Positions 2,308 through 15,282 are shown, counted from the first letter of the stretch. The stretch is 64,000 nt of DNA from Candidatus Binatus sp. (GCF_030646925.1 NZ_JAUSKL010000122.1:1365-65364); one strand, 5' to 3'. The notes: generated by a model not told the origin, from the sequence alone. Made by a program: numbers and translations.

Positions 2308-3219
2308 ATGCCAGCTCGATCAATATCCACTGCCAGTATCACCTTCGGCCTTGTGTCTATTCCGGTGCGCCTGTTTCCTGCCACGAGTCCAAAGAGCGTG
2401 AGATTCAACCTGCTTCACGCCAAGGACAACAGCCGGATCCAGGAAAAGATCTTCTGCCAGGCAGAAGAGAAGATGATCGATCGAAGCGAGTTGGTCCGCG
2501 GATACGAAATCGAGAAGGGCCGCTATGTAACTTTTGCGGACGAGGAGTTGAAAAAGCTCGAGGCGCAAACCGATCATGCGATCGAAATCAACGAGTTCAT
2601 ACCGGTGACCGAAGTCGATCCGATTCGCTTCGAGAATTCCTATCTGCTCGGCTGCGAACCGACCTCAGCCAAGGCCTACCACCTGTTGATGTCGGCGATG
2701 CTGAAGGAGAAGCGGGTTGCTATCGCAAAATTTACGATGCGGGGCAAAGAGCGCCTCGTATTGGTTCGTCCGTACGAGGACGGCCTGATGCTGCATACGA
2801 TGTACTACAACGACGAGATCAGGACCTTCGGCGAAATCGATCACGGCGCCAGGGCTCAAGTCGCGGACTCGGAACTGGGGCTCGCACAGCGCCTGATCGC
2901 CGACCTCACCAAAAAGAAGTTCGATGCGGAGCAATACTTCGATGCGGAGCAATACAAGGACAACTATCGTGAACGAGTCATCGAACTTGCCGAGCAGAAG
3001 ATGGCTGGGCACGAAATTACCGAGGCCGCGCCCGAAGTCCGCCGCGCCAACGTTATCGATCTGATGAGCGCTCTCAAGGCATCGTTGAAGAAGCGCGGCG
3101 TCGAGGTCGGGTCGGAACGCGAGAGCGAAGAGGCCGCGGAGGAAGCTGAGCCCGCCAAGGCGCGCGCTCACGCCTCGAAAGGATCGCGGGCGCCGCGGGT
3201 GCGCCGCCAGGCCCGGTAA
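2308..3219 (+). CDS. ku: Ku DNA-end-binding protein (NHEJ)
   Basis: Track ORF 2218..3219. The Ku-type N-terminus SITFGLVSIPVRLFPAT starts at ATG 2308, preceded by GGAGGT (2298-2303). Basic C-terminal tail; adjacent to ligD. Confidence 0.9.
   Translation: MPARSISTASITFGLVSIPVRLFPATSPKSVRFNLLHAKDNSRIQEKIFCQAEEKMIDRSELVRGYEIEKGRYVTFADEELKKLEAQTDHAIEINEFIPVTEVDPIRFENSYLLGCEPTSAKAYHLLMSAMLKEKRVAIAKFTMRGKERLVLVRPYEDGLMLHTMYYNDEIRTFGEIDHGARAQVADSELGLAQRLIADLTKKKFDAEQYFDAEQYKDNYRERVIELAEQKMAGHEITEAAPEVRRANVIDLMSALKASLKKRGVEVGSERESEEAAEEAEPAKARAHASKGSRAPRVRRQAR
2920..2955 (+). repeat. perfect in-frame 18-bp tandem duplication inside ku (ttcgatgcggagcaatac x2, FDAEQY x2)
   Basis: Read directly: units at 2920-2937 and 2938-2955. 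Confidence 0.9.
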
Positions 3220-3280: not shown

Positions 3281-5926
3281 ATGCCGCTCGAGAAATATCG
3301 CAGCAAGAGAAACGCCGATCGCACGCCTGAACCTTTCGGCACCGCGCCGCCGGCGTCCGGTCCCGCCGGCAGCGGCGTGTTCGTCGTTCAAAAGCATGCG
3401 GCGCGCCGCCTCCACTATGATTTCCGCCTCGAGATGGAAGGCGTGTTGCGCTCGTGGGCAGTGCCGAAAGGACCGTCGCTGGATCCGGCGAATAAGCACT
3501 TAGCGGTTGCGGTCGAAGATCATCCGCTGGAATACGGCGATTTCGAAGGCGTCATCCCCGAGGGTAACTACGGCGCCGGCGCGGTGATCGTCTGGGATCG
3601 CGGCATCTATACGGTGCTCGATCCGCCGGAAGGGAGCCCGGGCGACGCCGTGCGCAAAGGCAAGCTCGATATTCGCTTGCACGGCTTCAAACTGAACGGC
3701 GCATACACCTTGGTGCGGACCGGTGGCCGGCCTGGCGCCGCGGCGAAGGACAAGGCCAGTTGGCTGCTTATCAAGAAGCGCGATGAGTTTGCGAAGTCCG
3801 AAGACGTCCTCGAGATGCATCCGCGGTCGGTGTTATCGGGCTTGACGGTCGAGGAAATGCGTGACGCGCCGGCGGCCGGTGTCCGCGTCGCGGCTAAGCT
3901 CGCACGCCGCGAACTTCCAGAACTGACCGGACGGCTTAAACGCGCCGACTTTCCGTTGATGCTTGCCCGGACCGCCGACAATCCTTTCGACGGCGATAGT
4001 TGGCTCTTCGAATTGAAGTACGACGGAGTTCGCGTCGTCGCGATTCGCGACGGCTCCGCGGTGCAGTTGTACGCGCGGAGCGGCGCCGAAGTAACCGCGC
4101 GCTATCCCGAGGTCGCGCTCGCATTCAACGCGCTGCCATACGATCGCTTCGTGATGGACGGCGAGATCGTTGCGCTGGACGAATCCGGCCGGCCGAGCTT
4201 TCAGCTTTTGCAGCGCAGGATGCACGTGCAGGACACGCGGCAGATCGCGCGCCTCAGCTTCGCCTTGCCCGCCTGCGATTTCGTGTTCGACCTGCTTGCC
4301 TTCGATCGATTCGATTTGCGCCCGCTGCCGCTTGAAGATCGAAAGAAGCTGCTGCGTGAACTGGTTCGCGGCGAAGGACCGGTTCGCTTTTGCGACTACG
4401 TGCTCACGCGCGGCGTCGATTTCTACCAGGCGGTGGCGGAGCAATCGCTCGAAGGCATCATCGCCAAGCGCCGGGATTCACCTTATCGAGCTACTCGTTC
4501 GGAGGCGTGGCTGAAAATCAAATGTCCGCTGACGCGACGCTTCGTGGTCGGCGGCTACACCGATCCCGGCGGCACTCGCACGCATTTCGGCGCGCTACTA
4601 CTTGGTCAATACGAGAGCGACGGCGCGCTCCGCTACACTGACAAGGTCGGCACCGGCTTTAATCGCGATCGGTTGAGAAAGATCTACGCGATGCTTCAAC
4701 AACGCGAGCGAGCGACCTCTCCCTTTCGCAAAGCGAAGCGCGACGAGCCTGCTATCGCGCGCGCCGGTATCCATTTTGTCGAACCTGAGCTGGTGGCCGA
4801 AGTACGATTCACCGAATGGACCGATAGTGGCGGCGTCCGACAACCGAGTTTTCTTGGACTCGCCGGCGATGCCGACCCGCGTCAATGCACCTATGACGGC
4901 CCGCAAGGATCCGACAGCCGGGCTGAGCCGGTCGTGGATGAAAATCTCGGCAAACGCGGGAGCGCTATTCAGGAAGCAGCTAGCGGCGCCGCGAAGGTCG
5001 AACCTAACACCGCGACAGTTACTCATCCTGAAAAAGTGTTCTGGCCGCGCGAGGGCTATACCAAGGGAGACCTCGTAGCGTACTATCGCGCGATTTCGAA
5101 ATGGATGCTGCCTTACTTGAAAGATCGACCGGTCATGCTGACCCGCTATCCTGATGGCATCGGCGGCAAGATGTTCTATCAGAAGGACGCGCCTGCGTTT
5201 GCTCCACCCTGGCTCCGCACTGAGAACATTTACTCCGAGGATTCGCAACGCGAGATCGCTTACTTCATAATCGATAGCGAGGAAGCGCTGGCCTACGTGG
5301 CAAATCTCGCCGCGGTGACCATACACGTCTGGTCGTCGCGTATCGTTCACCTGGAACGTCCCGACTGGCTTCTCTTCGATATCGATCCCAAAGGGTCAAC
5401 AACTCGAATTGCGGTCGAAGTTGCGCTTGAGGTTGCTAGCGTCCTGCGCGAGATCGGTCTCGAACCCTGCTTGAAGACATCAGGGCAGATGGGCCTGCAC
5501 GTGGTAGTCGGATTGAAGCCCAAATACACCTACGAACAAGCGCGGATGTTTTCCGAGTTGGTTTCAGGCGTGGTAGTAAGGCGAATCCCGAAGCTGGCCA
5601 CCATTAATCGCAATCCGCGGACGCGCGAAGGCCGCGTTTATATCGACTATCTGCAACTTGGTCACGGTAAGACGATCGCGGGACCTTATTCGGTGCGGCC
5701 GGTAGACGGCGCTCCCGTATCGGCGCCTATGAAATGGAATGAGCTAAAGCTGGACCTCGATCCGGTGAAGTTCAACATCAAGACGATGCCGGCGCGGATG
5801 GCGCAACTCGGAATAGATCCCTTTCTCGACGTGCTTGAGCGGCCAACCAGCCTGGAAGAATCGATGCCTCGTCTCGAGGAATTAATCGCGGGTGAGCACA
5901 CGCCTAGCTCAACCGCAAGCCGCTAG
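3281..5926 (+). CDS. ligD: ATP-dependent DNA ligase LigD, three domains (phosphoesterase - ligase - polymerase)
   Basis: 881 aa. PE domain (VFVVQKHAARRLHYDFRLE), ligase adenylation motif (FELKYDGVR), C-terminal LigD-Pol region (VFWPREGYTKGDLVAYY ... SGQMGLHVVV). Confidence 0.9.
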   Translation: MPLEKYRSKRNADRTPEPFGTAPPASGPAGSGVFVVQKHAARRLHYDFRLEMEGVLRSWAVPKGPSLDPANKHLAVAVEDHPLEYGDFEGVIPEGNYGAGAVIVWDRGIYTVLDPPEGSPGDAVRKGKLDIRLHGFKLNGAYTLVRTGGRPGAAAKDKASWLLIKKRDEFAKSEDVLEMHPRSVLSGLTVEEMRDAPAAGVRVAAKLARRELPELTGRLKRADFPLMLARTADNPFDGDSWLFELKYDGVRVVAIRDGSAVQLYARSGAEVTARYPEVALAFNALPYDRFVMDGEIVALDESGRPSFQLLQRRMHVQDTRQIARLSFALPACDFVFDLLAFDRFDLRPLPLEDRKKLLRELVRGEGPVRFCDYVLTRGVDFYQAVAEQSLEGIIAKRRDSPYRATRSEAWLKIKCPLTRRFVVGGYTDPGGTRTHFGALLLGQYESDGALRYTDKVGTGFNRDRLRKIYAMLQQRERATSPFRKAKRDEPAIARAGIHFVEPELVAEVRFTEWTDSGGVRQPSFLGLAGDADPRQCTYDGPQGSDSRAEPVVDENLGKRGSAIQEAASGAAKVEPNTATVTHPEKVFWPREGYTKGDLVAYYRAISKWMLPYLKDRPVMLTRYPDGIGGKMFYQKDAPAFAPPWLRTENIYSEDSQREIAYFIIDSEEALAYVANLAAVTIHVWSSRIVHLERPDWLLFDIDPKGSTTRIAVEVALEVASVLREIGLEPCLKTSGQMGLHVVVGLKPKYTYEQARMFSELVSGVVVRRIPKLATINRNPRTREGRVYIDYLQLGHGKTIAGPYSVRPVDGAPVSAPMKWNELKLDLDPVKFNIKTMPARMAQLGIDPFLDVLERPTSLEESMPRLEELIAGEHTPSSTASR

Positions 5927-5939
5927 CGCCTGATCTTGG

Positions 5940-6524
5940 TTATCGATTGCGCACGGGAAGAGGCAACGGACCGACGGCGCGCGATCCTTTCGGGAAGACA
6001 TCCTTCATCCTGATGAGTGTGCGCACGAGACTTAGCAACTCGGCGCGAGCGGCATCGGATGGCTGACCGTCCGCGAAGTCCGTGGAAGTCAGATAGACGC
6101 TGGTGGGTGCGGTAAAGGCACCGAACCATGCGAGCACGTCGCGCAGATGCCAGTCGGCGCCGAGAAAGTGGTGATTGGTCGCACCCATCGCGACAATTCC
6201 GCACGGCTTGCCCATCAGCGATTCGACGGGCAGATGATCGAGCAAATTTTTGAGAGCGCCGGTAAAGGTGCCGCGATAAACCGGCGTCGCGAGCACTAAC
6301 ACGTCCGCAGCCAGCGCCTTCTCGACTATCTGAGCCGTGTCGTCATGATAGTCCGCAGGCGGTCGCCCGTCTGCGAACGCTATCTTGCAGTCGCCCAAAT
6401 TTATCAGGCTCGCCTCGAGCGACGGATCAATAGCTCGACTCTCGTCGATCATTAGATTGAGCGCCTTAAAAAAGCGCCCGGGAGGCGTGACGCTGCCGAG
6501 AATCACCACCAGTTTCGTCGTCAT
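5940..6524 (-). CDS. NADPH-dependent FMN reductase family protein
   Basis: 194 aa. Flavodoxin-like N-terminus MTTKLVVILGSVTPPGR and overall family resemblance. Confidence 0.7.
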   Translation of the reverse strand: MTTKLVVILGSVTPPGRFFKALNLMIDESRAIDPSLEASLINLGDCKIAFADGRPPADYHDDTAQIVEKALAADVLVLATPVYRGTFTGALKNLLDHLPVESLMGKPCGIVAMGATNHHFLGADWHLRDVLAWFGAFTAPTSVYLTSTDFADGQPSDAARAELLSLVRTLIRMKDVFPKGSRAVGPLPLPVRNR

Positions 6525-6543: not shown

Positions 6544-6948
6544 CTAAGTGAGTTCAGCTCTCCGCTGATGAAGGATGATCGCCGCGCCTGAGGACACGCT
6601 GATCGCGATTAGCGCATAGAGGAGCATGCCGACGAGCAGCGGCGCATTCGGCAAGGTGGCATAAGTCTTTGTCAGATAGAGCACCAGGTTCACGATCACG
6701 TACGCGGCGTACAAGTACGCTATCGGCAGTGCAAATTGCCGCATCGCGAAGATACCGAATGCGTAGGTTGCGAGAATTACTCCGAACACCGGTCCCGCGA
6801 TCGCGTTGGCCATGCCTGAAAGCCGCGTGCCGAGAAAAACGAATCCCACTTCGGAACTCATTTTCAGCGGCTTCATGAAATTCGAGACGGCGAGCAGGGC
6901 AAACAGCACCGCGAAAATTGTTAGAATCGCACCGCGCTTCCTGTCCAT
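6544..6948 (-). CDS. small polytopic membrane protein, function unknown
   Basis: Track ORF 6544..7173 trimmed to the ATG at 6948, preceded on the minus strand by GGGAGG. Four hydrophobic segments. Confidence 0.5.
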   Translation of the reverse strand: MDRKRGAILTIFAVLFALLAVSNFMKPLKMSSEVGFVFLGTRLSGMANAIAGPVFGVILATYAFGIFAMRQFALPIAYLYAAYVIVNLVLYLTKTYATLPNAPLLVGMLLYALIAISVSSGAAIILHQRRAELT

Positions 6949-9013
6949 GCACGACCTCCCTCGACCGATCGACATCGTAGTCGGCGACGCCGCAAAACGC
7001 ATCATCGGTCGCGGTAGTCGCGGCGCTCGCGAGGACTTTCCTCGGCTCATCGCGAACGATACATCTCTCGGCATCGGAATCGATCGCAAAATTCTGCGCC
7101 TGCTGGCGGCGCTCGCACTGATGTTGTGTGGTTTGTCGGGTTGCGGACGGAGCGCGCCGCCTACGCAAAACAATCTGCTTTACAATGGCAACCTGGCGCG
7201 CGGCAGCGGCGACCGTCCCGCCGATTGGTACGCCATCACTTCAAAACGAGACCTGAGCGCGTTTTCGTGGACGCGATCGCCCGACGGCGCCAGCGCGCTC
7301 GAGCTTGCTCATTCCGGACCGAATTACTCGAGCTGGCATCAGCGCCTGATGCTTGCGCCGGGAACTTATCGCGTCAGCGCCGAGGCGCGCATCGAAGGCG
7401 CAACTTCCGGCGGCGGCGCGACAATCGCGGTCGAAGGCGTCGATGGATCTCAATTGACGTCGATTCCGCTGCATCGTTCGAGTGGGTGGGAACAGATTTC
7501 GATCGTGCTCAATGAAGATCGATGGGGAGCGACCACCGAGATCCTCTGCCAGCTCGGTGCGCCGACGAATCCCGACACTGGCCGCGCGTGGTTCCGCGAT
7601 CTCAAAGTTATGCCAATCGTAAATCCAGGCAGCGAAGAATTGCTCGCCGCACAAGTGCATCCGGAGATCCCGTGGCGCGACGATGGCGGCCCGGCGCGCG
7701 CAGGCGGCGCGATTTGCGGGATCGCGCTGTATGGCTTGCTGGCGTGGGCGCTCGTAGCGATTTGGCGACCGCCGCTGGCGACCGGCCGCAACGCCGCGAC
7801 GCTCGCGATCGCCGCGATGCTCGCGATCACCGCGGTCAAATTCGCCGCGCTGTTCCACTTTACCGGCTACTTCTGGGACATCTGGTCGAAGACGAATCGC
7901 GCCTTGCTCGCGGCGGAACTCGGCCCTTCGCGAATCTACGATCCCGGCCTGCCGATCGACGCTTATCCGCCGGGCTCGCTCTATGTCCTGTGGCTTTCCG
8001 GATCGATTGGCAGGATGCTCGAGCCCAGCGCCGATGGCTTTCGCATCATCGTCGAGACGCCGCCGCTGATTGCCGACTTCCTGATCGGGCTAACGCTCTA
8101 CTTCGCGACGTGGCGCGACGGACGCACGCTCGCTGCGTTTATCGCGATGCTGATGTTCGCGCTGAATCCGGCGCTGATCTACGACACCACGGTGTGGGGT
8201 CAGAGCGATTCGATCGTCGCGCTGCCGATGATCGCCGCGACTGTGCTGATCCTCGCCGGCCGCTACCGCCTTGGATGGATTGCCGCGGCGATTGCGATTC
8301 TCGCCAAGCCGCAGGCGCTCGCGACGGTGCCGATACTCGGACTCTGGACGTTGTTCAGCGCGGGCATCGCGGAAACTGCGGTATGCGTCGTTGCGTTCGG
8401 CGCAACCGTCGTGCTCGGAATCTTGCCGTTCCAGTTGGGGCATCCGTGGAACTGGACTCTCAACGTGTACCAGGACCTGAGCACGCGATACAGCGCGGCT
8501 TCGGTCGGCGCGTTTAATTTTCACGCGTTGCTCGGCGGGATCGAGGAGTCGGATACCGACTTGGTGTTCGGCGTATCGTATCGCACGCTGGGCTTTTCGC
8601 TGACGTTCGCGGTCTATGCGCTAACGGCGTGGATGATTTGGCGTGCGCGATCGGCGTCAGCGGCGATACTCGCGATCTTCGTCACACTGCTGGGGTTTTT
8701 TCTGTTCACGCCGCGGATGCACGAGCGGTATCTCTACTATCCGCTGGTGTTTATCACGTTGATTGCGCTCGAAAAGCGGTTTCTGACTTTGGTATTTGCG
8801 GCTTTGACCGGGACGCTTCTATTCAACCTCATCTACATGAAGCATCTGACCGACACCTCGACGTATTTTGCGGATGAACCGACCTGGCCGATTCTCACGG
8901 CGTCTGCGATCAATCTGGCGGTATTCGTCGCGGTCGCGGGCTACGCTTTTCTGCGGACGCGCGACGCAGCGGGGCAGGGCGGCGACTCGATCGATTTCAC
9001 TCGAAGCGTCTGA
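6947..9013 (+). CDS. membrane glycosyltransferase-like protein: lipobox, jelly-roll (CBM-like) domain and GT-C-type polytopic domain
   Basis: Track ORF 6806..9013. RKILRLLAALALMLCGLSGC looks like a lipoprotein signal. A beta-rich roughly 170-aa domain follows. The multi-TM domain has ALG6/PMT-like loops (IDAYPPGSLYVLW, WGQSDSI). The start is uncertain: candidates are ATG 6947, ATG 7121, or a non-canonical codon near 7079. Confidence 0.6.
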   Translation: MHDLPRPIDIVVGDAAKRIIGRGSRGAREDFPRLIANDTSLGIGIDRKILRLLAALALMLCGLSGCGRSAPPTQNNLLYNGNLARGSGDRPADWYAITSKRDLSAFSWTRSPDGASALELAHSGPNYSSWHQRLMLAPGTYRVSAEARIEGATSGGGATIAVEGVDGSQLTSIPLHRSSGWEQISIVLNEDRWGATTEILCQLGAPTNPDTGRAWFRDLKVMPIVNPGSEELLAAQVHPEIPWRDDGGPARAGGAICGIALYGLLAWALVAIWRPPLATGRNAATLAIAAMLAITAVKFAALFHFTGYFWDIWSKTNRALLAAELGPSRIYDPGLPIDAYPPGSLYVLWLSGSIGRMLEPSADGFRIIVETPPLIADFLIGLTLYFATWRDGRTLAAFIAMLMFALNPALIYDTTVWGQSDSIVALPMIAATVLILAGRYRLGWIAAAIAILAKPQALATVPILGLWTLFSAGIAETAVCVVAFGATVVLGILPFQLGHPWNWTLNVYQDLSTRYSAASVGAFNFHALLGGIEESDTDLVFGVSYRTLGFSLTFAVYALTAWMIWRARSASAAILAIFVTLLGFFLFTPRMHERYLYYPLVFITLIALEKRFLTLVFAALTGTLLFNLIYMKHLTDTSTYFADEPTWPILTASAINLAVFVAVAGYAFLRTRDAAGQGGDSIDFTRSV

Positions 9014-9134
9014 CATCCAGCTTGGGAAAATGCACCGTCCGCGGCATTGGCGGGGTGCTTCAAATGCCATCCTGAAGAAATTGCAGCATCAGCCGGTTCG
9101 CTCCGGCACGAACAAATGCGCCGCGGTGCGCCGG
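8945..9134. repeat. junction copy J1: 3' end of the GT-C gene, spacer, and a decayed 3' end of an alpha/beta-hydrolase gene
   Basis: Aligns by eye with 12012-12135 (J2) and 13000-13130 (J3); aligned strings are given in the findings. Confidence 0.65.
9060..9134 (-). pseudogene. C-terminal remnant of an alpha/beta-hydrolase paralogue
   Basis: Minus-strand translation PAHRGAFVRAGANRLMLQFLQDGI* parallels the intact C-terminus GAGHFVHQEKPDHVNRLMLQFLRQGI* at 13057. Stop codons lie immediately upstream in frame. Confidence 0.5.
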
Positions 9135-9181
9135 AGGCTAAGGCAAGATCGCTCAACCGAACCAGAAATAAACTGCCAAGC
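9116..9181. repeat. 66-bp direct repeat, copy 1
   Basis: atgcgccgcggtgcgccggaggctaaggcaagatcgctcaaccgaaccagaaataaactgccaagc compared with copy 2: 7 mismatches counted by eye. Confidence 0.8.
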
Positions 9182-9494
9182 CGGGGTTTAATCAGCGCGT
9201 TGTCCGCTGATGATGAAACAATACATAAACAATCAGTGTTTTTATCGCGCTTTTTCGGGCATCTAAATCCTAGACGTTTACGTTTATGATATGGAGTATT
9301 TGAGAAATAGGACAATGGTCTTCTTTCCGCTAAGGCGGCGTGGTCCGGGTCGACCTCGTTCGCTGTAAGGTTGATGAATGGCTTTTTCGAAGAACGCGCG
9401 ATGAACTCTTCGCGGTGACAGCCATCTGGATTCCAAATCTATGCTAAACGATTGATAAAACGGTTCAATGGCAGTTGCGTAGTGGCATGGACAT

Positions 9495-9560
9495 ATGCGC
9501 CGTGAGGCGCCGGAGGACAAGGCAAGATCGCTCAACCGAACCAGAAATAAATTGCCGAGC
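9495..9560. repeat. 66-bp direct repeat, copy 2
   Basis: atgcgccgtgaggcgccggaggacaaggcaagatcgctcaaccgaaccagaaataaattgccgagc. Offset of 379 bp from copy 1, with AT-rich DNA between them. Confidence 0.8.
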
Positions 9561-9743
9561 ACCATAACCGAAAGGGCTTCTTGTCCGTGATTGAAATGAC
9601 AGGGTCTAAACATAGTCAGGCCGTTGGTTATTTCATGAAGAATATCGGCTATATTCTAGACCTCCCTGTTTAGGATCCGTTGCGTAATAGTGTTTGCGTT
9701 CCCCGCCGACCCCATGTATCCTGATGAATTACGAGGTAGAACC

Positions 9744-9953
9744 GTGGAAGACAACAGCGTGAAGGACCTTACGAAATCCATGCGTGCGCTGCTTCTGGTG
9801 CAGCTCCAGGCGCAGATTGCGCCCGACGACAGGGAAAAACCCGAGGTGCTCCTATCCCGAGCCGGATTCGCGGCGCGCGAAATTGCGGAATTGCTGAGGA
9901 AGAGCCCGGCCGCAGTCGCGAAGGCGATTCAGCGGTCCGAGAGGGGGGAGTAG
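9744..9953 (+). CDS. mini-HTH protein 1 (sigma-70 region-4-like)
   Basis: Track ORF 9690..9953. Preferred start is GTG 9744, six nt after GAGGT (9733-9737). HTH AREIAELLRKSPAAVAKAIQR. Confidence 0.55.
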   Translation: MEDNSVKDLTKSMRALLLVQLQAQIAPDDREKPEVLLSRAGFAAREIAELLRKSPAAVAKAIQRSERGE

Positions 9954-9959
9954 CGAACA

Positions 9960-10196
9960 ATGGCCACAGGCGGACCCGCCACGATTGACGACCTGTTGAA
10001 ACAGGCGAAGACGACAAACCGTCTTCTTGCGGCGCAACTAAAGGCCCAAATGAGCCAGATGGACCTCATTGCCCTCTTAGACGACTCCGGCCTGACGGCT
10101 CGGGAGATCGGCGAGATTCTCGGCACATCACCCGCGACAGTGGCTGTGACCCAACAGCGCCTGAGAAAGAAGAAGATGAAAAAATCGGAGGAGTAG
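9960..10196 (+). CDS. mini-HTH protein 2 (sigma-70 region-4-like)
   Basis: 78 aa, with a GGGGGAG RBS. LTAREIGEILGTSPATVAVTQQRLRKKK resembles sigma region 4.2. Confidence 0.6.
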   Translation: MATGGPATIDDLLKQAKTTNRLLAAQLKAQMSQMDLIALLDDSGLTAREIGEILGTSPATVAVTQQRLRKKKMKKSEE

Positions 10197-10202
10197 TCGC
10201 CT

Positions 10203-10388
10203 ATGCCAAAGAACTTCGATTCCGGGGAGCGTGTCGTCGAACTGCTGCGGGCGCTGATTATCGTGCAGCTTGGGTTGGCCGGAGTTGGTCAGGCGCAGAT
10301 TCGGAAAATTGTCGGGGGCTCCATGAATGACATTAATGCGATCGTTAAGTTACTTCGCTCGGGGCGCCGCGGGCAGGTGAAAGAATGA
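10203..10388 (+). CDS. mini-HTH protein 3 (most diverged)
   Basis: 61 aa, with a GGAGGA RBS. Same helix-plus-HTH plan (LLRALIIVQL ... QAQIRKIVGGSMNDINAIVKLLR). Confidence 0.5.
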   Translation: MPKNFDSGERVVELLRALIIVQLGLAGVGQAQIRKIVGGSMNDINAIVKLLRSGRRGQVKE

Positions 10389-10468
10389 GTACTCCTACTG
10401 AAGAGCGGAGAACCGCGGAATTGCTCAATCGAAACGACTCAGGACTTATTCATCTTTCTAGGAAATGA
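10385..10468 (+). CDS. 27-codon bridging ORF (possible decayed paralogue or coupling relay)
   Basis: Not in the track. Its ATG overlaps the upstream TGA (ATGA), and its own TGA overlaps the ATG at 10465. Product MSTPTEERRTAELLNRNDSGLIHLSRK. Confidence 0.25.
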   Translation: MSTPTEERRTAELLNRNDSGLIHLSRK

Positions 10469-10683
10469 ACATCATGGAGAACAACGGCAATTCGCTCGCG
10501 GATGAACTGCGGGCCGTGAAAATGCTTCTCATTCTTCAGGCGCTGGCTTTGGGCTGTCAGCAAAAGCACATCGCGGCCGCGCTCGGCGTCAGCGAAGCAA
10601 CGTTGAGCCGGATGCTCCCGAAAGGCTTCGGCAAGGAAATCGCCAAAATTGCCGACCGTCGTCTTGGCGCGGAGGCCACATAG
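10465..10683 (+). CDS. mini-HTH protein 4
   Basis: 72 aa. MLLILQALALGCQQKHIAAALGVSEATLSRMLPKG. Confidence 0.6.
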   Translation: MNIMENNGNSLADELRAVKMLLILQALALGCQQKHIAAALGVSEATLSRMLPKGFGKEIAKIADRRLGAEAT

Positions 10684-10685
10684 TC

Positions 10686-10862
10686 ATGACCGAAGAACAG
10701 GCCGCCGCCATCCTCAAGGAGCTCGAGATGTTGCGGAAGCTGAAACTGCTTGAACTTCTCGACAACGGTTATTCGCAAGGGCAGCTCGCAAAGCTTTTAG
10801 GCGTGAGTCAGCCGACTATCAGCCGCATGGTTCCAAACGTTTCCTTGAAGAAGGCGCGATGA
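10686..10862 (+). CDS. mini-HTH protein 5 (below the ORF-track size cut-off)
   Basis: Translated by hand: MTEEQAAAILKELEMLRKLKLLELLDNGYSQGQLAKLLGVSQPTISRMVPNVSLKKAR. GGAGG RBS. Its stop overlaps the ATG at 10859 (ATGA). Confidence 0.6.
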   Translation: MTEEQAAAILKELEMLRKLKLLELLDNGYSQGQLAKLLGVSQPTISRMVPNVSLKKAR

Positions 10863-11899
10863 CGGCCAAAACTTCAGTGGTCAATTGGGCCGGCGACTAC
10901 GAAGAAACCTGCATCCAGCTAGGCAAGCATCTCGGGAAAAATAAAATCCGCCGAATGCTGTTCGGCGCCATCTATGGTCGTGGCTCCAAGCCGCGTTCCA
11001 AGAAGCAGTTGATGGCCGAGGTCGGCCTTAAGGCCAGCCACGCTCAGCAGGCGCAGAACCAACTCGACCACCTTTGGCGCTATGGGCTAATTGAGCGAAA
11101 TGAGAACGAGGGGGCGGTGGCTGACGGCAGCTGCTATGTCTACAGCAAGGAGCCAAACGTTGGCGCGCACCGCAAGAAGATCGTCCAACACGCCGACAAG
11201 CCTGCTCTCGCGAAAAAGACGCCGACCAAGCGCAACCCGATGGTGCGTGGCATGACGGTCGTCGTCAAACCCGTCGTCAGGCGAAGCACGCTGAAAAAAA
11301 ACAAGCACCTCGACGTGCTTTACCTTATGGCCAACCCAATCAGGAAGCACAGCCTGCGCGTGGACGCCGAGGTGAGAAAAGTCTGTGAGGAGATCCGCCG
11401 TTCGCAATATCGCGACAACATCACGCTTCACCAATCGCCTGCGGCCGACCTCACCACCATTATTCGCGGCCTCAACGATCATCGGCCTGGCATTGTGCAC
11501 TTCTCGGGTCACGGTAATGCCGACGGCTTGGCGACCGACGACGGCGGCGTTAAGCGCACGAAAACTCAATTCGTCACGTTTGATCTTCTCGGCAAAGCCC
11601 TTGCTGCGACTGACGACCCTCCGAAAGTCGTCGTCTTAAACGCCTGCCGAAGCGCCGGAGCGCGCGGAGCGCTCTTCGGTACGGCGAAGGCCATCATCGC
11701 CATGCAAGACTCCATCGGCGACGCTGCCGCGGTAGCTTTTGCCACGATGTTCTATGGTGGCATTGCCAGCGGCCAGTCGTTGCAGTCAGCCTTCGAACAA
11801 GGTTGCGTCGCAGTGGAATCTGTTTCTCTACGAGAAGCGGCAACGCCAAAGCTGATTACTGCAAATGGCGTCGATGCGAAGAAACTCAAGCTGGCGTAA
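10859..11899 (+). CDS. winged-helix-like N-terminus fused to a minimal CHAT (caspase-fold) protease domain
   Basis: 346 aa. Catalytic-dyad contexts IVHFSGHGNADG and VVVLNACRSAG. CHAT-typical LDVLYLMANP start of the domain. N-terminal segment KKQLMAEVGLKASHAQQAQNQLDHLWRYGLIERNE looks like a wHTH. Confidence 0.8.
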   Translation: MTAKTSVVNWAGDYEETCIQLGKHLGKNKIRRMLFGAIYGRGSKPRSKKQLMAEVGLKASHAQQAQNQLDHLWRYGLIERNENEGAVADGSCYVYSKEPNVGAHRKKIVQHADKPALAKKTPTKRNPMVRGMTVVVKPVVRRSTLKKNKHLDVLYLMANPIRKHSLRVDAEVRKVCEEIRRSQYRDNITLHQSPAADLTTIIRGLNDHRPGIVHFSGHGNADGLATDDGGVKRTKTQFVTFDLLGKALAATDDPPKVVVLNACRSAGARGALFGTAKAIIAMQDSIGDAAAVAFATMFYGGIASGQSLQSAFEQGCVAVESVSLREAATPKLITANGVDAKKLKLA

Positions 11900-12011
11900 C
11901 TCATATGAGCGGTTATCGCGCCGGACGCGGCTTCGCCAAGACGCAGCACCATCACTGTTCCCCTGACTTCCGGCTGTAACTCGATCCGCGCGCGCCCTAC
12001 TGAACGCACCA

Positions 12012-12135
12012 ATAACGCTTTATTGCGCCCGCGCGACGACGCAGGGCAGGGCACCGAGTAATCGATTTCAATCGACGCGTCTGACGTCCAACTCTTGAAG
12101 AACGGAGTCGGAAGAGGTCATTGGCAGAGCGCGCA
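12012..12135. repeat. junction copy J2 (GT-C 3'-end-like plus spacer-like sequence)
   Basis: acgctttattgcgcccgcgcgacgacgcagggcagggcaccgagtaatcgatttcaatcgacgcgtctgacgtccaactcttg parallels 8945-9025. Confidence 0.6.
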
Positions 12136-12138
12136 GAT

Positions 12139-12570
12139 TTAGACAGCCTCGCGTTTCGGCTCGATCTCCGGAAAGAATGCTCCGGCTGGCAGATGAAAGC
12201 GTCGCGATAGTGCCTGGACCTGCCGTACGTTGAGTTCGCGCTTTCCGCGCAGGATTTCAGAGACCACCCCCTGGCTGCCGATTTCGGGCAGATCTCCCTG
12301 CGACAGGCCGTGCTGCTCCATCAGGAATTTGAGCAGTTCGACGCCCGAAGCATCGGGAATCTGATGGTGTTCCTCGTCGTAGGCCTCGATCAGTACGCTC
12401 AGGGTATCGATGAAGCGGTAGCGGGGATCCTTGGGGTTGTCGCCGACCTCGTCGACCAATTCGTTGAGCTGCGCGACTGCCGCGTCGTATTCGCGCCCGT
12501 TGCGGATGGCGAGCAGGGGAGCGTACTTCTCGGGATTCCTGAGGGTCTGAGTGATCGTTCGACTCTTCAT
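12139..12570 (-). CDS. higA: HigA-type antitoxin (XRE-family HTH)
   Basis: Track ORF 12139..12831 trimmed to the ATG at 12570 (MKSRTITQ...). C-terminal HTH GLSQGDLPEIGSQGVVSEILRGKRELNVRQVQALSRRF. ATGA overlap with higB. Confidence 0.85.
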   Translation of the reverse strand: MKSRTITQTLRNPEKYAPLLAIRNGREYDAAVAQLNELVDEVGDNPKDPRYRFIDTLSVLIEAYDEEHHQIPDASGVELLKFLMEQHGLSQGDLPEIGSQGVVSEILRGKRELNVRQVQALSRRFHLPAGAFFPEIEPKREAV

Positions 12571-12866
12571 TTTTTCCAGTCGCCTTTGTCGTATTGCGCA
12601 TGAGTTAGGACGTGCCGGATGAACAGTTTTTGCGTATTGAAATGGATCGCGGCAATGAGCCGGTACTTGTTGCCGCCAATATCGAACACGTAAAAACCTT
12701 TCCTGCCGGCACTCACATAGTCGACGCTTTTGAATGTCTGTTTCAGTTCCGCGAGATTTTTGAAACTGCCTCTTCTCGCGGCCTTGAACCAGGTTTTCAG
12801 CGGGGCTTCGGCGCCAGCGTGAACCTTCCAAAACTCCGTCAACGCCTTCCGCGAGATTACGTGCAC
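12567..12866 (-). CDS. higB: HigB-type toxin (RelE/ParE superfamily mRNA interferase)
   Basis: 99 aa. MHVISRKALTEFW...FDIGGNKYRLIAAIHFNTQKLFIRHVLTHAQYDKGDW is typical of this HigB family. Toxin-first gene order. Confidence 0.85.
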   Translation of the reverse strand: MHVISRKALTEFWKVHAGAEAPLKTWFKAARRGSFKNLAELKQTFKSVDYVSAGRKGFYVFDIGGNKYRLIAAIHFNTQKLFIRHVLTHAQYDKGDWKK

Positions 12867-12999
12867 GAACGAAGACTATCTCATTTCGCGATACATATCA
12901 ACTCAATATGAGATGGCGCAGGCCAGCAAAGCACGCGGGGCCTCGCCAGGCCTCGATTCTATCCCCTACCCTAGAGAGATCGCGATCCCCGTTCGCAGC

Positions 13000-13130
13000 G
13001 CAGGATGGCAGGGCCGACGTCCAGCTTGGTAAGATAGACGCCGTCCGCAAGACACTTCAAATACCTTGCCGAAGAAATTGCAGCATCAGCCGATTGACGT
13101 GATCGGGTTTCTCCTGATGCACGAAATGGC
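13000..13130. repeat. junction copy J3 (residual GT-C 3' bit, spacer, and 3' end of the intact hydrolase gene)
   Basis: gacgtccagcttggtaagatagacgccgtccgc ... cttcaaataccttgccgaagaaattgcagcatcagccgatt parallels 9012-9100. Confidence 0.65.
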
Positions 13131-13944
13131 CGGCGCCCGGCACCACGTCGATCTTCAATCCGCGCGGAAACAACGCTTCCATCCCGCTAAGAAGTTCCGC
13201 CCCGATGCATCCATCGTCGCGCCCATGGAACATCAGCGTCGGCACCTCGATCGGCGCGGCCATCGCAGTTGCGAGCGCGCTCGGTTGCGCCGGAATCTTC
13301 AGCACCGGGCCGAGCGTCGCGCGATAGTAGCCGAGCGCCGCCTCGAGGGTGCCCTTGGCGCGGAAGCATCGCTTGAGCGCTTCCATTTCCGGCTGCGTCC
13401 AGTTCCAGCCGGGCGACCAATCGCGCCACATCTTTTCGAGGAAAGCAAAATCGTTGAGGCTGACCGCGGTCTCCGCGATCGCAGTCTGGAAAAAGAACAT
13501 GTACCAAGAGCGCCTTTGCTGCGCGTAATTAGTCACCAGCGCCTGGAAAAAACTGGTTCCGTAGGGAACAGCGGCGGTAATTAGTTTCTGCACGACATTC
13601 GGCGCCCGTGCCGCCGCGCCATAGGCTGCGACCGCACCCCAGTCGTGCCCGAACAGGACCGCCTCCTGATAGCCGAGCGCTTCGATCAGAGCGAGCGCGT
13701 CTTCCGACAACACCGGCGAATCGTAGCGGCCGTCGGGCGCAGGCTCGGTCGGCGCATAGCCGCGCATGAACGGCGCGACGGCATGATAACCCGCGTCGGC
13801 GAGCGCCGGCATCTGATTGCGAAAGGAGTGCGCCGTGTCAGGAAACCCGTGCAGGCATAGCACCAACGGCCCTTCGCCGATCTCGAGCACGGTGAAGTTC
13901 AGCTTCGACGCTCGCACCACTCGCTCGTTCATTTGTGCCGCCAT
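13057..13944 (-). CDS. alpha/beta-fold hydrolase (epoxide-hydrolase-like)
   Basis: 295 aa. HGFPDTAHSF oxyanion region, nucleophile elbow GHDWGA, C-terminal GAGHFVHQEKP. Confidence 0.85.
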   Translation of the reverse strand: MAAQMNERVVRASKLNFTVLEIGEGPLVLCLHGFPDTAHSFRNQMPALADAGYHAVAPFMRGYAPTEPAPDGRYDSPVLSEDALALIEALGYQEAVLFGHDWGAVAAYGAAARAPNVVQKLITAAVPYGTSFFQALVTNYAQQRRSWYMFFFQTAIAETAVSLNDFAFLEKMWRDWSPGWNWTQPEMEALKRCFRAKGTLEAALGYYRATLGPVLKIPAQPSALATAMAAPIEVPTLMFHGRDDGCIGAELLSGMEALFPRGLKIDVVPGAGHFVHQEKPDHVNRLMLQFLRQGI

Positions 13945-14340
13945 GCTGCCTCTCTTTTATAACACTTTTCCGCTTGGCTATTTCGCGCGAAGTGTCGGCT
14001 CGCGGAAGAATCTCGCGCCTAGATATGCCGTCTTGCCGACCTCATAGCCCGGCCCTGCGTATCTCGCGATGCTAGAATCCATTCGTCAATCAGTCGCGCT
14101 CGAACCGCTTATTCGCCTTTTGCGGCCAGGCCTCGCGATATAGCGGATCGATGCACCATCCTGTATTGTCAGTGGCCTCGACGGCAAGCACATTTGCCCT
14201 CCCGCTTTCGGTTCGAAGGCCCCAAGTGAAAATGTGCGGATGCCGGCCGCCCGGATGTTCATGGGCAATCGGGCTGCCGAAGCCTCGCTCAGCGCGCAAG
14301 CAATCAGGCGTGCGCGAGAGTTCAGGCCGAGAACGGAACA

Positions 14341-15282
14341 GTGGAGCGACGAATGGCGATTACGAACACCAACACCCGCGCGATTTTCTCACCGACCTAT
14401 CGGCCGTGGGAGCAGCGCTGGTACGCAGCATCGGGACCGGACATCGGAGTGTTCGCCTGGATAATGTTGATCCACGCGACGGCGCTGGCCGGCCTGGTGA
14501 TGTTTCCTCTGCCCGGATGGCCGCTCTTTTTCGGCGCGCTGGCGCTCGCGTTCGTCGGCGGACTCGGCACTACGGTCGCCTATCATCGTGCGATCGCGCA
14601 TCGCAGCGTCACGCTGAATCCATGGGCGCGCGGCGTGCTCACGTTCGTCGCGATGTTCAACGGTTCGGGTGCGCCAGCGTCGTGGGCGTCGCGCCATCGC
14701 CAGCATCATGCACAGGCGGATACTGCCGACGACGTCTCGAGTCCGATCTTCGGCGGCTTCTGGTGGGCGCATCTCCGATGGCTCTGGCAAACCGGGCCCT
14801 CGCCGATGGATCGCTACGGCCGCGATCTCAAGGCCCCGACGTACATCATCTGGCGTTATTTCCAGATTCCGATTCTGACGCTCTCGTATCTCGGCCCGCT
14901 GTATTTCGGCCTCGCGGCGTTTTTCTGGCTCGGCGCGATTCGGCTCTGCTTCGCGCTTCATGCGCAATGCTTCGTCAACAGCGTCTGCCACACCGAACCT
15001 GGAATCGTGCCGGGTGAGGATTCGAGCCGCAACGTGAGATGGCTCGCTGTGATGCATATGCTGCAGGGCGAGAATTGGCATCGCAACCATCATTCGCGGC
15101 CCGGATGGGCGCGGCTCGGGTGGAACTGGCGCCAGCCCGACGTTGGCTACGTTGTCATCCTTGCGCTCGAGCAACTCGGCCTCGCGTACGACGTTCGCGA
15201 TGGCCGGCCGCGTGCGAACCTGAAGGCGCGCGATCCGCGCGAGATCGCCGGCGATCAGGACGCGCTCGATCCGGCCGCGTAA
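14341..15282 (+). CDS. membrane fatty-acid (acyl-CoA/lipid delta-9-type) desaturase
   Basis: Three His boxes (HRAIAHRS, HRQHHAQAD, HRNHHSRP) with TM segments. ATG 14353 is an alternative start. Confidence 0.85.
   Translation: MERRMAITNTNTRAIFSPTYRPWEQRWYAASGPDIGVFAWIMLIHATALAGLVMFPLPGWPLFFGALALAFVGGLGTTVAYHRAIAHRSVTLNPWARGVLTFVAMFNGSGAPASWASRHRQHHAQADTADDVSSPIFGGFWWAHLRWLWQTGPSPMDRYGRDLKAPTYIIWRYFQIPILTLSYLGPLYFGLAAFFWLGAIRLCFALHAQCFVNSVCHTEPGIVPGEDSSRNVRWLAVMHMLQGENWHRNHHSRPGWARLGWNWRQPDVGYVVILALEQLGLAYDVRDGRPRANLKARDPREIAGDQDALDPAA

Follow-up and report, generated by a model that had tools for sequence, protein, structure and literature searches.

Integration by a single crossover of the Campbell type, as known from suicide plasmids and from lambda-type attP × attB recombination, places an insert between direct copies of a stretch that is uninterrupted where the site is unoccupied. 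A locus of this appearance is the subject of the present analysis: In the window, by which we mean the whole stretch of 64,000 nucleotides (nt) from Candidatus Binatus sp. (a groundwater metagenome assembly), two modules are lodged between the convergent genes of a GT-C-type membrane glycosyltransferase (hereafter GT-C) and an alpha/beta-hydrolase, namely module 1, a cassette of five paralogous small helix-turn-helix (mini-HTH) genes and one CHAT (caspase-like) protease gene, and module 2, a higBA toxin–antitoxin pair. As in Campbell integrants, insert material lies between two direct copies of what is one unbroken segment at the unoccupied site, here the junction at which the two enzyme genes end; unlike in Campbell integrants, the copies are only 83% identical and the insert holds no recombinase gene.

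The locus also resembles sites at which islands accumulate. Tandem accretion at one attachment (att) site has been described for the Asn tDNA hotspots of Klebsiella (PMC4891358) and for integrative mobilizable and integrative conjugative elements (PMC5704250). With such accretion the window shares successive elements at one site, a short core at each boundary, a defence or toxin–antitoxin cargo and integrase-less remnants; it differs in that it contains no tRNA gene, just an 18-nt anticodon-arm match at the end of a protein gene, and in that module 1 lies between 156-nt, 83%-identical duplications of both gene ends, which extend beyond any core. In the tycheposon islands of Prochlorococcus, tRNA-targeting elements with tyrosine recombinases integrate repeatedly at one site, pushing older ones inward and leaving partial tRNAs and degenerate elements scattered within (bioRxiv 10.1101/2020.12.28.424599); repeated integration at the same site and degenerate remnants are common to both, although the phylum differs. 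[quoted passage not shown] The window is similar in these respects, but its anchors are housekeeping enzymes rather than toxin genes, its remnants are very short, and an att-like core is present. Overall, the locus is a fairly ordinary genomic-island scar at a hotspot, with some unusual details.

Two diverged copies of one junction

The initial annotation had described the GT-C/hydrolase junction as present three times, as J1, J2 and J3 (Table 1), and the similarities behind that description are real and lie far above background. J1 matches J2 with 80% identity over 80 nt (8943-9022 versus 12015-12093; E 1e-14 against the whole window; alignment score 78 versus a shuffle maximum of 27), and it matches J3 in two blocks, 9012-9042 versus 13016-13048 and 9058-9098 versus 13055-13095, the second of which comprises 41 nt at 88% (E 3e-9 against the whole window; alignment score 60 versus a shuffle maximum of 26). 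J2 and J3, for their part, show no match beyond an 11-mer, their alignment score of 21 being that of the background. To the right of its core J2 bears no resemblance to the J1 spacer (p=0.35), and to the left of its core J3 bears none to the GT-C tail (p=0.30); the spacers of J1 and J3 are similar (p=0.005). Removal of higBA (12094-13026) in silico leaves a joined J2 and J3 of 148 nt (12015-12093 plus 13027-13095), whose end-to-end alignment with the 156 nt of J1 shows an identity of 83.3% and 16 gap columns (z=18.6). Because J2 and J3 share nothing beyond the 11-mer and J1 aligns end to end with the two joined together, the junction is present as two diverged copies that bracket module 1, the distal one being split by higBA at an 11-18-nt core into a GT-C half (J2) and a hydrolase half (J3); a third copy is rejected. 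The sole sequence found three times is the 11-nt GACRTCCARCT, written GACGTCCA(A/G)CT, at 9012-9022, 12083-12093 and 13016-13026. Consequently, the junction boundaries had to be redrawn: The end once assigned to J1 (9099-9134) belongs to the cassette, J2 does not extend to 12135, and J3 spans 13016-13095. No further copies of the junction sequences occur elsewhere in the window, which argues against a dispersed repeat, and a known RNA element was likewise rejected, as nothing in 8000-14500 matched Rfam in a scan at E<=1.

The gene ends within the copies are recognizable as such. The fragment B*, comprising the last 13 hydrolase codons, reads NRLMLQFLQDGI before its stop codon and the intact hydrolase gene, whose 3' end is B', reads NRLMLQFLRQGI, which confirms the decayed hydrolase C-terminus seen in J1 at the outset. 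On the other side, A' reads ALLRPRDDAGQGTE / IDFNRRV plus stop with one 1-nt frameshift, and GT-C itself reads AFLRTRDAAGQGGD(S)IDFTRSV plus stop. The GT-C stop codon (9011-9013) overlaps the first 2 nt of the J1 core. From left to right, the order of the parts is A-core-spacer-B* / cassette / 19 nt / A'-core-[higBA]-core-spacer-B', and the open reading frames (ORFs) and Pfam matches place the HTH/CHAT operon between J1 and J2 and higBA between J2 and J3, as had been stated. The GC content falls to 0.47-0.60 over 9000-13000 versus 0.62-0.65 in the flanks.

As the window stems from a metagenome assembly, chance similarity or a misassembly joining two strains' versions of the locus has to be considered. 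The Logan assembly of the source run covers the region in contigs of 8000-9169, 9143-9548, 9522-12781 and 12758 onward at a depth of 11-15x, of which the first three are identical to the window and the last (L010) differs at 4 of 6,092 positions. Its contigs and unitigs do break, namely at the 31-nt exact D1 repeat and at 12758-12781, but not at J1, J2 or J3, each of which lies inside a single, independently assembled contig of even depth (13-15x). Moreover, the similarities are strong both end to end (z=18.6) and within the window (E 1e-14 and 3e-9), and a strain chimera would not leave pieces of the hydrolase and GT-C genes along the cassette's outer sides. We therefore see no problem with the assembly, and consider this explanation extremely improbable.

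Table 1. Features of the GT-C/hydrolase junction region in window coordinates.
Feature	Position	Strand	Remark
GT-C-type membrane glycosyltransferase gene	7100..9013	+	longest ORF from 6806; weak GT87 Pfam match
J1, complete junction copy, 156 nt	8943..9098		repeat finding, local and end-to-end alignment
J1: A (GT-C 3' end)	8943-9011
J1: core copy 1, GACATCCAGCTTGGGAAA	9012..9029	+	16/18 nt match to tRNA-Gly(CCC), complementary strand
J1: spacer	9030-9057
J1: B*	9058-9098
Module 1, five paralogous mini-HTH genes and CHAT (caspase-like) protease gene	9099..11995	+	discrete cassette
D1a, 77-nt repeat, cassette left end	9105..9181	+	pairs with D1b, 87% identity
D1b, second 77-nt repeat copy	9484..9560	+	upstream of first HTH gene
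Five tandem small HTH genes	9690-9953, 9960-10196, 10203-10388, 10465-10683, 10686-10862	+	ORFs
CHAT-domain protease gene, 346 aa	10859..11899	+	Pfam CHAT 2e-11
Filler, 19 nt, cassette end to J2	11996..12014
J2, GT-C half of second junction copy	12015..12093		A' 12015-12082, then 11-nt core repeat GACGTCCAACT 12083-12093
Module 2, higBA toxin–antitoxin pair	12094..13015	-	inside core of second junction copy
higA	12139-12573	-
higB	12567-12866	-
J3, hydrolase half of second junction copy	13016..13095		core GACGTCCAGCTTGGTAAG 13016-13033, spacer 13034-13054, B' 13055-13095
Intact alpha/beta-hydrolase gene, 295 aa	13057..13944	-	Pfam Abhydrolase_1 1e-28

Relatives of the locus were collected with two protein searches, of which that with GT-C returned nine loci in Binatia-like or "delta-proteobacterial" metagenome-assembled genomes and that with the hydrolase 80 metagenome loci; individual loci are designated L001 and so forth. 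The GT-C orthologues in the Binatia-like genomes share 55-75% amino acid (aa) identity, and the final ~23 codons of the gene form a clade-specific tail that runs into the core and is different in L002, L003, L005 and L031. Hydrolase orthologues are 58-90% identical; the hydrolase gene is a conserved neighbour of GT-C, and in many relatives a desaturase adjoins. About 3 kb upstream of the hotspot the window encodes a full-length LigD (881 aa, 3281-5926), judged by its sequence to be a non-homologous end-joining (NHEJ) enzyme of the ligase/polymerase/phosphoesterase type.

The tRNA-like core and higBA

What the junction copies have in common at their centre is a resemblance to the anticodon arm of tRNA-Gly(CCC). 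On the plus strand the tRNA reads ...GGTGACGTCCAGCTTGGGAAGCTGG..., a stretch running from the variable loop through the anticodon stem (3' strand) to the anticodon loop. The agreement amounts to 17/18 nt for J3, 16/18 for J1, about 13/18 for J2 and 18/19 for L001. Matches with <=3 mismatches would be expected 0.05 times per 64 kb, and two were found, both at junction copies, so that a chance resemblance seems unlikely. The three att-like copies (9012-9029, 12083-12093 and 13016-13033) have the same orientation and form direct repeats, one at each repeat junction. Furthermore, the homology between the window and L001 ends exactly after TTGGGAA (9028, corresponding to L001 3566), and the cargo beyond this point differs in each.

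The higBA module sits within this core. It is flanked only by the 11-nt repeat, the identity block GACGTCCARCT, which ends at the first base of the loop-like part of the core; tyrosine recombinases that target anticodon loops exchange strands at the start of the loop. For the initial annotation, which had proposed two successive insertions that each duplicated the junction, this means that the hotspot and the two modules stand; higBA did not duplicate the junction and has only 11 nt repeated around it. The genes themselves have the arrangement of a type II HigBA system, with higB upstream of higA and an overlap of 7 nt; HigB_toxin matches with 1.7e-29 and HTH_3 with 9.5e-5, the latter just below the cut-off of Pfam. 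In PADLOC the pair matches PD-Lambda-2_A/B, where the B match (antitoxin) is limited to positions 1-116 of a profile of 402; a third gene is absent.

Transposition as a means of entry was rejected for both modules: There is no transposase ORF, and neither module has inverted repeats at its ends (p=0.70 for inverted similarity between the ends of the cassette). In addition, the repeat around higBA coincides with the tRNA-like core instead of an arbitrary target.

The cassette of module 1 and its relatives

Contigs from soil metagenomes are ~95% identical to the window over exactly 9099-11995 and diverge beyond. The right end (11993-11995) is common to L027 (81%) and L012, and the left end corresponds to the start of the D1 repeat in L121 and L027. 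As its two ends are shared with other soil metagenomes, module 1 is a discrete cassette. Its small HTH genes encode products of 58-87 aa, all of which align as paralogues and four of five of which give weak HTH Pfam matches; the motifs HFSGHG and LNACRS are found in the CHAT protein. The wider D1 region aligns to L121 (95%) and L027 (90-91%), and its exact 31-nt core, GGCAAGATCGCTCAACCGAACCAGAAATAAA, recurs in L013 with one mismatch. D1 gave no match in the Rfam scan described above; conceivable roles are those of an operator, of a small RNA and of a recombination site. A weaker D1-like stretch (p=0.006) is located at 11909-11945, 3' of the stop codon of CHAT. Where the L012-type cassette has only TCGC between its third and fourth HTH genes, the window has 78 nt (10395-10472); in L012 the start called for the fourth HTH gene lies upstream, so that this gene overlaps the third.

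The operon is widespread in soil Alpha- and Gammaproteobacteria and in Binatia. At least 120 CHAT relatives with 55-93% identity are among the matches listed, from hosts that include Bradyrhizobium, Xanthobacteraceae, Pseudolabrys, Methyloceanibacter, Steroidobacteraceae and Rudaea; in every context examined the CHAT gene is preceded by mini-HTH genes, four or five in number except in the fragmented L023, where one is called, and the operons sit between unrelated housekeeping genes. PADLOC assigned the operon to no system except for a weak SAVED_CHAT hit. An origin from phages or plasmids was discarded, as plasmid CHAT matches are <=38% identical and a single weak phage match was obtained; IMG/VR contained no close relative of the CHAT protein or of the integrase described below. 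In L024, a 105-nt inverted repeat (78% identity; 2575-2679 and 6154-6242) brackets an IS630-family transposase together with the HTH/CHAT cassette.

The closest copies point to integrative islands at tRNA genes. In L012-L014, whose CHAT proteins share 93% aa identity with that of the window, the cassette is followed by an HTH_17 excisionase-like gene and then by a tyrosine integrase of ~447 aa with Arm-DNA-bind_2/Phage_integrase domains, and the L012 contig terminates within the 3' part of tRNA-Gly, of which it includes the first 27 nt. Relatives of this integrase in L028 and L029 (78-81% identity) overlap tRNA-Gly(CCC) in loci that carry TIR, AbiEii, SSB and ArdC genes, and in L027 the cassette end is ~190 bp from tRNA-Gly(CCC). 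A second core copy (attL) was sought in the examined DNA of L027, L028 and L029 and not found. Taken together, the tRNA-Gly(CCC) match of the core and the near-identical cassettes in integrase islands make site-specific recombination at least a part of the story. Module 1 is not inserted at the core itself, however: An integrase acting there would duplicate only the identity block, and module 1 lies between two complete junctions.

Could the duplication instead have arisen in situ? The cassette would then have been captured between staggered breaks or sister-chromatid ends, yielding identical tandem copies of ~156 bp that have since diverged, with higBA following later. A and A' are indeed closer to each other (81%) than either is to its nearest relative L001 (75-76%), the left non-coding part of the cassette is ~18% diverged from the L012 and L121 types, which is compatible with an old insertion, and LigD is present. 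Yet most of the cassette is 95-99% identical to copies in tRNA-Gly islands, whereas the junction copies are 17% apart with 16 additional gap columns, and L121 (87%) and L027 (81%) are also tied to tRNA-Gly islands. With these two likewise linked to such islands, it is probable that the island context is ancestral and that the window copy arrived recently. The differences, moreover, lean to third codon positions, and we know of no bacterial element that makes target duplications of this length. We thus regard in-situ duplication as improbable. The age of the insertion was not readable from the divergence of the cassette, as the latter is a mosaic relative to the L012/L013 type: The identity is 98.8% over 9894-10394 and 95.5% for CHAT, and it amounts to 81.5% for the non-coding part on the left.

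A second, independent case of a target-gene fragment beside the same cassette is provided by L018, and identically by L019 and L020: To the left of the cassette lies a diverged 155-nt fragment of the N-terminal part of a glutathione S-transferase (GST) gene and to the right the intact GST (8744-8898 versus 11429-11639), the fragment matching in two blocks (87% and 76% identity) and carrying a premature stop as well as a deletion of 56 nt. Here the differences are strongly biased to the third codon position (6, 3 and 16 at the three positions), and in the window the counts of 5, 4 and 9 are not significant. One conceivable explanation is that the cassette is a recombinase-less element that brings along its landing site as a short copy and relies on the homologous recombination of the host for insertion. 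If true, this would explain why two unrelated genomes have the cassette beside a diverged fragment of ~155 nt of the local target, the target being the GT-C/hydrolase junction in the window and the 5' end of the GST gene in L018-L020; we think of it as a long shot.

Origin of the arrangement at a hotspot

Among the 26 relatives in which both genes were mapped, the gap between the 3' ends of GT-C and hydrolase ranges from about 20-40 bp to ~5 kb. It is nearly empty (about 20-40 bp) in L031, L050 and L074, with overlapping ORF ends in L031, and is largest, at about 5 kb, in L034, L041 and L052. The contents are just as variable: a YafY-like regulator, a cupin and an amylase in L002, L003 and L005, joined by a nucleotidyltransferase-like pair in L002; a 453-aa unknown protein and a VirB8 fragment in L001, of which L030 shares the VirB8 fragment, its contig ending before the rest; and DUF3147 together with a luciferase-like oxygenase in L062. 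As both size and content of the gap vary, the gene order of the window is not ancestral, and the junction is an insertion hotspot, for which L031, L050 and L074 provide the empty state. In the two closest relatives the VirB8 (type IV secretion) fragment, an N-terminal one, lies directly against the stop codon of the hydrolase (L001 5454-5705, end of L030), which suggests a decayed conjugative element at that junction. Within the hotspot of L046 a palindromic element resembling repetitive extragenic palindromes (AATGTGAAACCCGCC...GGGCAGGGGTGACCCCTGCACCC) is repeated (1692-1744, 3091-3142), and similar text occurs 3' of GT-C in L005 (11925-11990).

Two of the occupied junctions bear scars comparable to B*. 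L062 has a 108-nt repeat that contains the last 12 hydrolase codons at 91% identity (4014-4112 versus 6604-6702, plus spacer), and L034 a 28-nt repeat of the last 8 hydrolase codons (7250-7277 versus 10904-10931); both copies are diverged and located on the far side of unrelated cargo. Scars of this kind are what homology-facilitated illegitimate recombination might leave. Linear DNA of a relative carrying the cassette would have entered through a homology anchor on one side, in hydrolase/desaturase or in GT-C, and an illegitimate joint on the other, with the resident gene end left behind as a fragment and higBA coming with the donor DNA or later. The final structure would be the same as after a Campbell event; the duplicated pieces resemble orthologous gene ends with matching stop codons; L018, with a GST 5' fragment on the left and a full GST with a different upstream region on the right, is simply accommodated; for comparable arrays of displaced gene ends in Vibrio T6SS clusters this process has been proposed (PMC5361080); and an NHEJ ligase, LigD, is at hand. 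Against it, the donor would already need the cassette next to the end of GT-C (last 80 nt) or of the hydrolase (last 41 nt), by which the problem is moved back rather than solved, and the tRNA-like core at every breakpoint remains without an explanation. Nor would random joints be expected to retain such short fragments in all three lineages (window 13 codons, L062 12 and L034 8, of a 295-codon gene), a length that is better in line with a short, element-borne copy. We therefore judge this route unlikely, if less so than duplication in situ.

The reading that we favour, with about even confidence, combines a Campbell-type entry of module 1 together with a junction copy and a subsequent integrase-type event that brought higBA to the distal core. 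Module 1 would have left a tRNA-Gly island and become linked to a junction copy of ~160-180 bp from a sister lineage (A'-core-spacer-B*). A circle with the cassette and this copy would then have entered by one crossover with the resident junction, made either by RecA within the stretch of homology or, in trans, by an integrase of the tRNA-Gly type at the core, thereby giving rise to J1 and to the copy now represented by J2 and J3. Later, a small higBA element may have integrated site-specifically in the anticodon-loop-like part of the distal core, duplicating only GACGTCCARCT. The integrase genes would never have been on these pieces or would since have been deleted; 19 nt now separate the cassette end from A'. 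For module 1 the resulting topology is the one found, an insert between two direct copies of a segment that is contiguous in L031, L050 and L074. The hydrolase-end scars of L062 and L034 and the GST fragment beside the cassette in L018-L020 also speak for this reading. The Campbell integration suggested in the initial annotation thus agrees with module 1 and fails for higBA, and its homologous form is one of several routes that fit.

A number of observations weigh against this favoured combination. How the circle acquired a junction copy lacks an explanation in it, and a RecA crossover between 156-nt sequences of 83% identity would be inefficient; a tyrosine integrase alone, on the other hand, leaves the duplication of both arms unexplained, that is, 80 nt of GT-C and 87 nt of core, spacer and hydrolase end. 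The distances point to no particular donor, A and A' being equidistant from L001 and closer to each other, and B* and B' too short to be placed; the closeness of A and A' would fit a sister-lineage donor or a duplication in situ alike. The codon-position bias of the differences is only suggestive; pooled with other loci it falls, by a chi-square estimate, between the models of foreign origin and of divergence in situ and is compatible with both. With respect to the site, ARAGORN found no tRNA gene in the window, outside the 18-nt core neither the 3' half nor the 5' half of tRNA-Gly aligns significantly, and none of the 80 hydrolase loci of relatives has the core or a tRNA. A decayed tRNA gene at the junction is therefore rejected, and the core would rather be a secondary or mimic attachment site peculiar to the clade of the window and L001. 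With respect to the machinery, tblastn with the L012 integrase gave no match in the window, no excisionase gene was found in it, and the ORFs in 9099-13015 are those of HTH, CHAT and HigBA only. As integrase and tRNA gene are both missing from the window, the locus does not belong to the integrase islands proper and, to judge from its gene content, is best called an integrase-less remnant of integrative islands at a secondary site.

Current ideas on island integration are left unchanged by the locus. Its value is that the build-up and subdivision of a core-gene hotspot are displayed in one place, where the boundary scars, att-like core and gene fragments, give the order of events, and that cargo of the tRNA-Gly-type islands is seen to have landed at a junction of protein genes that has no more than a match to the anticodon arm of the tRNA. 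Two points deserve note, the recurrent duplication of target fragments beside the cassette and the operon itself. With its five mini-HTH proteins and CHAT protease, this operon is uncharacterised and widespread, moves between phyla and also occurs in islands together with defence genes.

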